Below, in pieces: positions 14,538 to 42,823 of a stretch of 64,000 nt of DNA. The notes under the pieces were generated by a model. It worked only from the letters and a program-made list of their open reading frames with translations, had not been told where the DNA came from and did not search any database. This stretch comes from Promethearchaeota archaeon (GTDB taxonomy: Archaea > Asgardarchaeota > Lokiarchaeia > Sigyniarchaeales > SOKP01). The position numbers and the translations under genes were made by a program. The number at the start of each line of letters is the position of its first letter. Position 1 is the stretch's first letter. Where the stretch lies: the NCBI GenBank assembly GCA_019058245.1, contig JAHPZJ010000027.1:1-64000 (forward strand), in the 5' to 3' direction.

Positions 14538-14639
14538 GCGCTCGTAGTATAGTGGTCAGTATGCTAGGTTCCCAACCTCGCGACCCGGGAAGTCATTTCA
14601 TTTCGAGGTTACTCGGGATTTCAATTCCCGGCGGGCGCA
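14538..14639 (+). tRNA. tRNA-Gly(CCC) with a 30-nt intron at non-canonical position 53/54 (14590-14619)
   Basis: Acceptor stem GCGCTCG/CGGGCGC, anticodon loop TT-CCC-AA; removing 14590-14619 restores CCGGG-TTCAATT-CCCGG; BHB with central helix CCCG/CGGG. Confidence 0.9.
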
Positions 14640-41445: not shown

Positions 41446-41628
41446 CTAATTTTTTTTATTTTAAGCAAAAAAATTTTGATATTTTAGGTTGTCCCTAGTA
41501 CATTGGGATTTTTTTTCTATATTTGATATCTATTAAAATTCAAAAGTATAGGTATAAAACATTTAAAATTACAAATGTATTTTTATTACATAATTAAAAC
41601 TTAAATTAATATAAAAAGTAGAAGTCCA

Positions 41629-41880
41629 ATGAAACTGGAACGTATTAAAATTGAAAAAAAAAGATTTCTTACCCTTACGGTTATCTTCATAATAGCAGGG
41701 TCAATTCTTCTTGTTTTATCTGGTATTTGGGTTGTATCATGAGGTGAAATCGTGTATTCTTACGAATATTTAATGATTCCCGCAATAATATGCTATGTGG
41801 GGGCAATTGCTTTTTTTATAGTATATTTAATAGTAGTTATAATGCAATTTCGAATGAAAAGAATAAATCAAGCAAATTAA
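41629..41880 (+). CDS. Candidate small two-TM selenoprotein A (83 aa, Sec38 at TGA 41740-41742)
   Basis: MKLERIKIEKKRFLTLTVIFIIAGSILLVLSGIWVVS-U-GEIVYSYEYLMIPAIICYVGAIAFFIVYLIVVIMQFRMKRINQAN; homology to the paralog continues across the TGA; downstream SECIS. Confidence 0.75.
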
Positions 41881-41915
41881 AAATTATATCGAGAAAATGA
41901 GTATATATAAGATCT

Positions 41916-41986
41916 AACTTGAGAAAAATGATTTCTATAAAAAAATTTTAGTTATAGGATGATTATCCCCGCAAGGGACTCAAGTT
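41916..41986 (+). promoter_or_regulatory. Eukaryote-type SECIS element 1 (3' UTR)
   Basis: Helix I AACTTGAG/CTCAAGTT, core ATGAT...TGAT, helix II TTCTATAA/TTATAGGA, apical loop starting AAAAA, extra CCC-GCAA-GGG hairpin. Confidence 0.78.
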
Positions 41987-42117
41987 TTTTTATTTATATT
42001 TATAATGAATCATAAAAAAATAATCAAGAATTTCACACACTAATATTAAAAAGAAAAAACTGATTTATATAGAATAATTATATAATAAATTAATCAACAT
42101 TTAAAGGGAAAGATTCA

Positions 42118-42333
42118 ATGAAATATAGCACAAGTAGAGAAATATTTTCTGGATTTACGGTTTTCTTTGTAATTATCGGTATATGTCTTCTTTTATTATC
42201 TGGTCTTATGGCTTGAGGAACACAAGTATTTCCATACGCGTGGGTTCCAGCAATTATATGTTTTGTTGGTGCGATAATTTCCTATGATTCATATAAAAAA
42301 GTAGTAAAACAAGATTCTCGAAATAAAAAATAA
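42118..42333 (+). CDS. Candidate small two-TM selenoprotein B (71 aa, Sec33 at TGA 42214-42216)
   Basis: MKYSTSREIFSGFTVFFVIIGICLLLLSGLMA-U-GTQVFPYAWVPAIICFVGAIISYDSYKKVVKQDSRNKK; paralog of 41629-41880; downstream SECIS. Confidence 0.75.
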
Positions 42334-42382
42334 ATTATGTTCCTAAAGAATATACTGATAAACTCTGTTTAATTGTCATCAT

Positions 42383-42454
42383 TAATCCAAAAAAATGATT
42401 CCTATAAAAAAATCTTAGTTGTAGGATGATTATCCCCGCAAGGGATTTGGATTA
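42383..42454 (+). promoter_or_regulatory. Eukaryote-type SECIS element 2 (3' UTR)
   Basis: Helix I TAATCCAAA/TTTGGATTA, core ATGAT...TGAT, helix II TCCTATAA/TTGTAGGA, AAAAA loop, the same CCC-GCAA-GGG hairpin. Confidence 0.78.
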
Positions 42455-42463
42455 CATATTTTT

Positions 42464-42823
42464 TTAACCAGTTCTTTTGATTATATGATATCCAAATTTG
42501 GACTTTACTGGTTGTGAAATCTCACCTATCTTCAAATTCGTGCATGCATTCCAGAACTCCGGAACCATATCTCCTTTAGCAAATTCACCTAAATTACCAC
42601 CTCTTTTCTTACTCGAACATGTGGAATATTGGTTTGCCAATTGCTCAAATTTTTCACCTGCCTTTAAATCCTCATAAATCTCTTGAGCTTTAGTAAATTT
42701 TTCTACTAAGATGTGACTTGCTTTAATTTTTCCTCCACGAATGGGATTCCCTCCTGTTTTTGAGCCTCCTCCTTTTGATTGTGATCCTTTTTGAAATCCC
42801 TTTCCATATTTATTTTTTCCCAT
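42464..42823 (-). CDS. Parvulin-type peptidyl-prolyl isomerase with Gly/Lys-rich N-terminal extension
   Basis: ASHILV, FEQLA.QYS.C.S...GG.LG.F..G.MVPEF, FGYHII. Confidence 0.92.
   Translation of the reverse strand: MGKNKYGKGFQKGSQSKGGGSKTGGNPIRGGKIKASHILVEKFTKAQEIYEDLKAGEKFEQLANQYSTCSSKKRGGNLGEFAKGDMVPEFWNACTNLKIGEISQPVKSKFGYHIIKRTG

Follow-up and report, generated by a model that had tools for sequence, protein, structure and literature searches.

The closest described relative of the RNA elements studied here is lokiSECIS, a selenocysteine insertion sequence (SECIS) for which the original report gives an AUGA motif, a 9-bp stem, an 11-nt apical loop and then GA or AA (Mariotti et al. 2016, PMC4989117). 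According to the same source, the first five loop nucleotides are mostly A, the last one is an ultraconserved G that usually follows an A, and standard SECIS tools failed on these elements. The type has also been named Asgard 'eSECIS-like type I' (Huang, Xiao & Zhang 2024, PMC11227280). We analyzed two elements of this kind, located at positions 41916-41986 (copy 1) and 42383-42454 (copy 2) in a 64,000-nucleotide stretch of DNA from a Promethearchaeota archaeon (assembly GCA_019058245.1, contig JAHPZJ010000027.1, positions 1 to 64,000). This whole stretch is called the window below, and all window features are on its forward strand. Both elements are very probably functional Lokiarchaeia-type SECIS, which would direct selenocysteine (Sec) insertion at an in-frame UGA and carry a three-way junction under a kink-turn (k-turn).

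Published models of Asgard SECIS are simpler. The 2016 description, as given in its main text, covers the core, the upper stem and the apical loop only (PMC4989117). The 2024 description is a two-helix model with an internal loop devoid of conserved nucleotides (PMC11227280), and a 2026 review still shows two-helix type I/II models (PMC13188914). A covarying 3' hairpin, a core-side stem of 2-3 bp and a three-way junction are not mentioned in the main text of PMC4989117, in PMC11227280 or in PMC13188914, and our literature search found no publication joining SECIS, three-way junction and Asgard.

The two copies share the same layout. Helix I is followed by three or four A, AUGA, U and an 8-bp helix II capped by an 11-nt loop (AAAAA...AG); the return strand continues with U, GA, UUAUC, CCC-GCAA-GGG, A and the 3' arm of helix I. 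In copy 1, the 5' arm of helix I (AACUUGAG, 41916-41923) pairs with its 3' arm (CUCAAGUU, 41979-41986). The 5' side of the core (41924-41932) comprises A41925 and A41926, paired to U41964 and U41963 in a short C stem, a 3-nt bulge (A41927-A41928-U41929), G41930 and A41931, which form the tandem G.A, and U41932, opposite U41960; AUGA thus spans 41928-41931. Helix II (region 41933-41959) pairs 41933-41940 with 41952-41959 around the apical loop AAAAAUUUUAG (41941-41951). The 3' side of the core (41960-41966) consists of U41960, G41961-A41962 and a UUAU spacer, with the two leading U completing the C stem. This side leads into a third arm, P3 (41967-41978), made of C, CCC-GCAA-GGG and A. In copy 2, which scored 84.6 bits with the covariance model R1 described below, helix I (UAAUCCAAA/UUUGGAUUA) pairs 42383-42391 with 42446-42454. 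AAA (42392-42394), AUGA (42395-42398) and U42399 precede helix II (42400-42407 with 42419-42426) and its 11-nt loop AAAAAUCUUAG (42408-42418), and U42427, GA (42428-42429), UUAUC (42430-42434), the P3 hairpin CCC-GCAA-GGG (42435-42444) and A42445 complete the element. The 3' arm of helix I in copy 1 runs into a run of seven T (41985-41991), probably an archaeal oligo-T terminator. A second run of seven T (42459-42465), 5 nt past copy 2, is probably a transcription terminator as well.

The upper part of both copies is not a variant, because it fits lokiSECIS exactly. Indeed, AUGA lies directly 5' and GA directly 3' of the main stem, this stem has nine positions (U.U plus 8 bp), and the loop has 11 nt and reads AAAAA...AG. 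Both elements also satisfy the looser type I criteria of PMC11227280. As with lokiSECIS, they are found in the 3' untranslated region (UTR), shortly past the stop of a selenoprotein gene, and they escape standard SECIS tools: no Rfam SECIS family reached its gathering score in the window or E<=10 in 41880-42480. By contrast, the small genes served here, with two transmembrane (TM) segments each, are outside the seven Asgard selenoprotein families listed in 2024 (PMC11227280). A first-pass annotation of the sequence had described both copies as SECIS with a tandem G.A core and covarying stems, and had suggested that standard finders may miss them. Every sequence detail that it gave holds.

Comparison of the copies revealed that their parts have diverged to different extents. 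The core, AUGAU ... UGAU flanking the 8-bp helix II, is present in both, and the two differences found in helix II are pairing-neutral (U-G to C-G; U-A to U-G). Helix I (8 bp for copy 1, 9 bp for copy 2) is perfectly paired with almost no common sequence, as the first-pass annotation had pointed out, and the rest of the UTR is poorly conserved, having diverged like helix I. A 21-nt block (GAUGAUUAUCCCCGCAAGGGA) made of the 3' core and the hairpin is 100% identical between the copies; it occurs twice in the whole window and 0 times in 100 shuffles. Within this block, CCC-GCAA-GGG comes after the 3' GA and before helix I resumes with its 3' arm. RNAfold recovered helix I, helix II and the hairpin in both copies, but single-sequence folding z-scores were modest (-2.1 and -1.9 for copies 1 and 2), as expected for an RNA of 30% GC. 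The evidential weight is carried by comparative data. In particular, P3 identity between two recent paralogs is no evidence of selection, whereas its family-wide covariation is.

Covariation was assayed on 62 distinct elements aligned by R1. This covariance model was built from four well-aligned elements and has 71 positions, with helix I, helix II and a 3-bp P3; element C17, whose helix I starts with AUG, was left out because MAFFT misaligned it. In the alignment, 91.5% of cells were paired and all 22 pairs showed changes on both sides. None of 500 shuffled controls reached any covariation measure, and sliding the partners by 1-3 columns decreased pairing to 32-54%. Both main helices contributed, with 7/7 modelled pairs of helix I changed on both sides and 9/9 pairs of helix II covarying. 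P3 was 97.5% paired and its three pairs all covaried, alternating between C-G, U-A, U-G and G-C (for the third pair, C-G 24, U-A 14, U-G 8, others). Elements that R1 misaligned have still other P3 stems (GGG/CCC, AGGA/UCCU, UGG/CCA, ACC/GGU). RNAalifold, which the first-pass annotation had proposed to run on homologs, was applied to the same alignment with no structure supplied; it predicted helix I, helix II and P3, with 16/16 pairs compensated.

In an elementary hairpin search, P3-type hairpins were detected in at least 59 of 68 elements, compared with 16.5% of shuffled tails; the former count is a lower bound, the script having misplaced the core in the other nine. A centrally placed G-C was present in 52 of the 59 loops. 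Loop length varied from 3 to about 11 nt (for example GCA, AGC, UGCGA, AUAGCAA and GUAAGCG), and the GNRA loop of the window copies is thus one instance and not the rule. What is conserved in P3 is a covarying stem with a central G-C in its loop, rather than GNRA. Of the extra GNRA hairpin announced in the first-pass annotation, the hairpin itself is conserved and covaries, but its loop type is not kept.

The hairpin is not special to the two window copies, since P3 was found in all nine SECIS examined in this genome, throughout the family and in other Asgard families. A regex scan combined with R1 gave nine SECIS in this genome. Their loci correspond to three HdrA-VhuD pairs, three small TM open reading frames (ORFs) and one ORF with two adjacent TGA; no ORF was found at the other two of the nine. 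In 9/9 of these SECIS, a small hairpin (with stems such as CCC/GGG, ACC/GGU, UGG/CCA and AGGA/UCCU) stands a few nucleotides past GA and is followed by the closing helix I. Full-length R1 matches were obtained in every genome of the genus (36/36) and of the family (126/126); the latter spans 13 genera and yielded about 740 matches. To avoid circularity about P3, a core-only covariance model (R2, AUGA to GA) was also made. It fetched 40 elements from five other genera, 39 of which have a short spacer, a hairpin and helix I past GA; for the fortieth (L150), a core-detection artefact led to a spurious site instead of a real element.

Outside the family, R2 returned nothing at E<=1e-3, which reflects the specificity of this model and not absence, as the VhuD-anchored loci described below show the layout. 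When five non-family genomes were searched with an unpaired IUPAC pattern, the matches were mostly noise. With R1, the same layout was detected in four other Lokiarchaeia genomes outside the family; the genes concerned are two VhuD-like, one HdrA-like, one carrying two TGA side by side and a small ORF that is doubtful, and the P3 stems are CUCUU/AAGAG, CCUA/UAGG, CCCG/CGGG, CUCC/GGAG and UCUU/AAGA. An anchor independent of any RNA model was provided by a six-frame VhuD protein search in 150 genomes across the phylum, from which 18 matches with an internal TGA were sampled in three Asgard families (f24, f21 and f13). In 16 of these 18 loci, the order is AUGA or GUGA, helix II (9-12 bp, except 8 bp in L191), GA, three spacer nucleotides that can pair with the 5' side, and a hairpin. 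Examples of these P3 are CCUC-GUAAGCG-GAGG, GGCCC...GGGCC, CCCUU-AGAAUGCA-AAGGG and CCCC-UGCGA-GGGG. The closing helix I is present in f24 elements and in one f21 element; a clear one was not identified behind most f13 and the remaining f21 VhuD genes. The last two loci have the same layout, but with a mismatched stem or with UA replacing GA.

These distributions show that the core, the C-stem spacer and the third arm are a general property of the sampled Asgard SECIS, and that the three-armed arrangement is the general Asgard SECIS design rather than a local variant. The distinct Asgard subtype proposed in the first-pass annotation is not supported, as its upper part is ordinary lokiSECIS and P3 is found in all nine SECIS examined in this genome, in 126/126 genomes of the family, in other Lokiarchaeia families and in three further Asgard families. 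What had looked like a variant is the normal full architecture of Asgard SECIS, apparently undescribed before. As a separate observation, the VhuD SECIS of locus L181 (G123:C108:10870-11170, reverse strand) has UA at the 3' GA position in an otherwise intact three-armed layout, a possible core variant.

Recoding genes were looked for in front of the elements. A UGA ORF was defined as an ORF of at least 50 aa, terminated by TAA or TAG, with a TGA inside and with its end located from -30 to +120 nt relative to the element. Such an ORF was found for 49 of the 62 elements (79%), compared with 13.8% of 4000 random positions in this genome. This is the association that the first-pass annotation had proposed to check, and it shows that the covariance model is usable as bait: the genes concerned encode VhuD, HdrA, small single- and two-pass membrane proteins (with U beside C or G) and proteins with adjacent UU, and some of them are small unannotated ORFs.

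In the window, ORF 1 (41629-41880, 83 aa, stop TAA at 41878-41880) and ORF 2 (42118-42333, 71 aa, stop TAA at 42331-42333) are paralogs arranged in tandem, each with two predicted TM segments. Both stay open only by reading through a TGA, located at 41740-41742 in ORF 1 (U38) and at 42214-42216 in ORF 2 (U33). The elements begin 35 nt (copy 1) and 49 nt (copy 2) past the ORF stops. A six-frame search of 100 family genomes detected homologs in three other genomes; every homolog has one internal TGA and a full-length R1 match 50-60 nt downstream. In the alignment (five homologs), the TGA, the next Gly and a later Cys are invariant. No Pfam family scored above cut-off for these small proteins. 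The two ORFs probably represent a new selenoprotein family.

Examination of the core sequences revealed a further pairing. The three nucleotides before the bulge can pair with the three nucleotides past the 3' GA, as in UAG/CUA, UUG/CAA, AAG/CUU, CGG/CUG and UCG/CGA, or AA/UU in the window copies. This C stem is absent from R1, so the alignment was not fitted to its pairs. In the R1 alignment, the first pair is G-C in 52 elements, A-U in 6 and other in 1, and the second is A-U in 35, U-A in 6, G-U in 1 and other in 11. When elements were anchored on the core instead, the first pair could form in 59/60 family elements, 5/5 from other Lokiarchaeia and 17/17 from other classes, with much lower values in shifted controls. 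The second (A-U, U-A, G-U or C-G) was possible in 47/60, 2/5 and 14/17, respectively.

A 3-nt bulge (R-A-U) precedes the tandem G.A/A.G pairs, a combination that is the sequence signature of a standard k-turn; the AUGAU / UGAU of the window copies is its box C/D form. The 3-nt bulge, the tandem G.A/A.G and the Watson-Crick C stem right after A1n that define a standard k-turn are all present, at the level of sequence and covariation. The short C stem extends helix I on the 5' strand, and P3 branches below it, from the non-bulged strand. The standard k-turn of archaeal box C/D and H/ACA small RNAs (sRNAs) is bound by L7Ae (PMC5061560). It has the same 3-nt bulge, then G.A and A.G, a Watson-Crick pair closing the C side and, as in the window copies, U.U at the next position. 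The elements differ from it in that their C stem has just 2-3 bp and opens into a three-way junction. They also differ from the sRNA k-turns by their location in an mRNA 3' UTR and by the lack of guide sequences, and L7Ae binding is putative here.

In a k-junction, exemplified by the TPP riboswitch and DUF-3268, a third helix stands on the non-bulged strand, directly opposite the bulge (PMC4005666, PMC10573300). The present elements are similar in that an extra helix on this strand makes the k-turn a three-way junction, but 2-3 covarying pairs and 1-2 nt separate P3 from the G.A pairs. We rejected the k-junction assignment because P3 begins 4-5 nt past GA, beyond these covarying pairs. The architecture is better described as a predicted standard k-turn stacked on a junction.

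Other known SECIS types were compared as well. Eukaryotic SECIS type I (Rfam SECIS_1) has the same 3' UTR location, tandem G.A in AUGA..GA, unpaired apical adenines and lower helix I. It differs from the Asgard elements, whose helix II is shorter (9 positions) and in which the third arm fills the 3' side of what is an open internal loop in eukaryotes. Moreover, the eukaryotic quartet contains U.U, whereas a 3-nt bulge is found here, as the nucleotide past GA pairs four positions before the G of AUGA. The first-pass annotation had noted that the three-way junction is absent from the eukaryotic model; this is correct, and it extends to the published Asgard models in the parts of the literature cited above. 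SBP2 has not been reported in archaea (PMC9723677). In the euryarchaeal SECIS (eaSECIS), two stems flank a GAA_A bulge, and the upper one contains three G/C pairs in a row (PMC11227280); this type was rejected on account of the helix II sequence (UUCUAUAA/UUAUAGGA) and the lack of a GAA_A bulge. Finally, for the VhuD SECIS of Methanococcales and Methanopyrus, Mariotti 2016 (PMC4989117) mentions a 'short extra stem', AUGA and GAC/AAC. Compared by description, they share with our elements an AUGA that faces GA-C between two stems, and the C that they conserve after GA is equivalent to the first C-stem pair. They differ by keeping the euryarchaeal GAA_A bulge, and the main text of that source reports no third hairpin.

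Altogether, these data are consistent with the following mechanism. The elements, in the 3' UTRs of two tandem small two-TM genes, would have the in-frame UGA that lies about 180 nt upstream decoded as Sec. On the 5' strand, helix I is followed by the C stem of 2-3 bp, the A-A-U bulge, tandem sheared G.A/A.G pairs, a non-Watson-Crick U.U, the 8-bp helix II and the A-rich 11-nt loop ending in AG. The return strand completes the C stem, branches into P3 and ends with the 3' arm of helix I, forming a three-way junction directly under a box-C/D-like k-turn. We propose that an L7Ae-type protein, the Sec-specific elongation factor or both could dock on this k-turn. The P3 arm, whose loop keeps a central G-C, might fix the kinked geometry or offer a second, SECIS-specific recognition point, which would set the SECIS apart from other cellular k-turns. 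A more specific version is that the third arm and its G-C determine specificity for the archaeal SECIS reader, either the Sec elongation factor by itself or this factor combined with ribosomal L7Ae, and that the open loop of eukaryotes is the remnant left after arm loss and takeover by SBP2; this we put forward tentatively, as possible but on balance doubtful.

The closest competitor to such a recognition role is that P3 is selected but purely architectural, its loop docking on helix II or on the junction in tetraloop-receptor style and keeping the k-turn kinked in a protein-free state. The GNRA-type GCAA loop of the window copies and several others would suit such docking, riboswitch k-turns are architectural and k-junctions fold with metal ions alone (PMC10573300), and Sec users have no L7Ae-family gene beyond those of non-users. 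However, loops of 3 to about 11 nt are hard to fit to one fixed receptor contact, and a central G-C kept across differing loops looks more like a base-specific contact. Covariation suggestive of a receptor did not appear either, though no search was aimed at it. We regard the purely architectural role as rather unlikely. Very improbable, in turn, is that the hairpin is a passenger of a recent tandem duplication, only AUGA-stem-loop-GA being the SECIS. It is true that the copies are paralogs, whose identity is no sign of selection, and that published models need the upper part only. Yet helix I and the UTR have diverged in the very copies whose core and P3 block is 100% identical. P3 also recurs at this position, with stems that differ and covary, in unrelated gene families, in 13 genera and in other Asgard families, and P3-type hairpins are present in at least 59/68 elements vs 16.5% of shuffled tails.

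We give hardly any credence to the proposal that the element has no recoding function at all and is instead a terminator, a mobile element or repeat, a general k-turn regulator bound by L7Ae or a box C/D-like sRNA, located in 3' UTRs by chance. A run of seven T does come after each copy, the core resembles the box C/D consensus (RUGAU / UGA), and weak C/D small nucleolar RNA matches lie nearby, though on the opposite strand and at chance level. Against this, a search of 41500-42600 found 0 intrinsic-terminator-like hairpins with a T run, and P3 is followed by the helix I arm and not by Ts. Among related elements, just 26/68 have a run of at least five T 20-75 nt past the core. Box D' / C' or a guide region is not evident, and 79% of elements stand directly behind ORFs needing UGA read-through, including those of the classical selenoproteins HdrA and VhuD. 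The terminator reading was rejected because no G+C-rich hairpin directly precedes a T run in 41500-42600, and the mobile-repeat reading because each genome has only about 9 copies, which lack common flanks and differ in helix I sequence. A terminator or mobile repeat was among the outcomes that the first-pass annotation had named as refuting its claim.

Several points weigh against the assignment of the elements as functional SECIS under an L7Ae-type k-turn. Functional assignment in Asgard archaea rests on comparative evidence, the related sequences are not independent, and the role given to P3 is one that we infer. Thirteen of the 62 elements have no recognised UGA ORF of at least 50 aa in the allowed distance. 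In the C stem, the third pair is near chance (33/60), both window copies have two A-U pairs only, and the A-U variants of the first pair, six or seven in number, come from the same gene family, so that one event may account for all of them. True k-junctions are not folded by L7Ae (PMC10573300), which cautions against assuming that L7Ae would bind here.

The Sec machinery of this genome gives a mixed picture. SepSecS is encoded, with a score of 472.7 bits, above cut-off (L171, G000:C14:81258-85559). A tRNA-Sec-like match of 87 nt lies 113 nt upstream of it and may be a divergent Asgard tRNA-Sec. Counting against the assignment, this match scores 27.9 bits, below the Rfam cut-off, and ARAGORN, run without its intron mode, did not call it. 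Likewise, SelD was not found in this assembly (3.09 Mb), which is 76% complete. L7Ae-family (PF01248) genes number two each in Sec-using and non-using relatives, and these counts in 61 relatives revealed neither a dedicated SBP2-like reader nor an extra Sec-specific L7Ae paralog. We also observed that ARAGORN in this mode called just 6 tRNAs in the whole 3.09-Mb assembly, and that the window contains a 102-nt Rfam tRNA match at 14538-14639, long enough for an intron. The top PF01248 score consistently stayed at about 73-80 bits in this genus, below the 85-107 bits of other families of the class, which points to greater divergence of its L7Ae. The Sec-using genomes G056 and G060 score high for PF01248, and there is thus no clear link to Sec use.

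Asgard SECIS are the main evidence on the archaeal origin of the eukaryotic selenocysteine system, and we know of no archaeal SECIS-binding factor. The model on which the Asgard-eukaryote comparison relies is changed by a conserved third arm and by a k-turn geometry of box-C/D-like type, and the architecture gives concrete mutants for tests against L7Ae and the Sec elongation factor. It also gives a much more specific search model, which picks out unannotated small membrane selenoprotein genes. Such genes, the two of the window included, are absent from homology-based surveys with seven Asgard families.

Some loci deserve a separate description. At L046 (G007:C17:12431-15499), four SECIS lie within 3 kb, each behind a small two-TM ORF related to the window pair, and the extended cluster contains five SECIS within 5.4 kb. 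One of the ORFs at L046 has a second U at the position of the invariant Cys of the window proteins, and another has no TGA at all, its SECIS being nevertheless kept. Two well-formed SECIS of the present genome, both on the reverse strand (L013:1501-1566, G000:C10:58236-58301; L011:1501-1569, G000:C13:323889-323957), have no UGA ORF of at least 50 aa within 120 nt upstream; these SECIS may serve very short genes or may be orphans.

Two groups of candidate genes were noticed in front of other SECIS. Upstream of the SECIS at C10:60027-60096 in the same genome, a 154-aa ORF (L012:1577-2041, reverse strand, G000:C10) contains two adjacent TGA (...HADUUADV...) and has no Pfam match. Homologs with ...CUU... 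precede SECIS in two other genomes (L162, L131), and this ORF is a candidate for a selenoprotein in which two Sec would stand in tandem. The SECIS at C13:146110-146180 is directly preceded by an 86-aa ORF (L008:1572-1829, reverse strand, G000:C13) with one TM segment and the motif ...GGUGC.... In other genera, small ORFs with an N-terminal TM segment and U near C (GGGGUTSC, QUPSAC, CLPUG, GGGULC, GEUPCS) also precede SECIS. Together with the 86-aa ORF, they form a candidate second family of tiny membrane selenoproteins.

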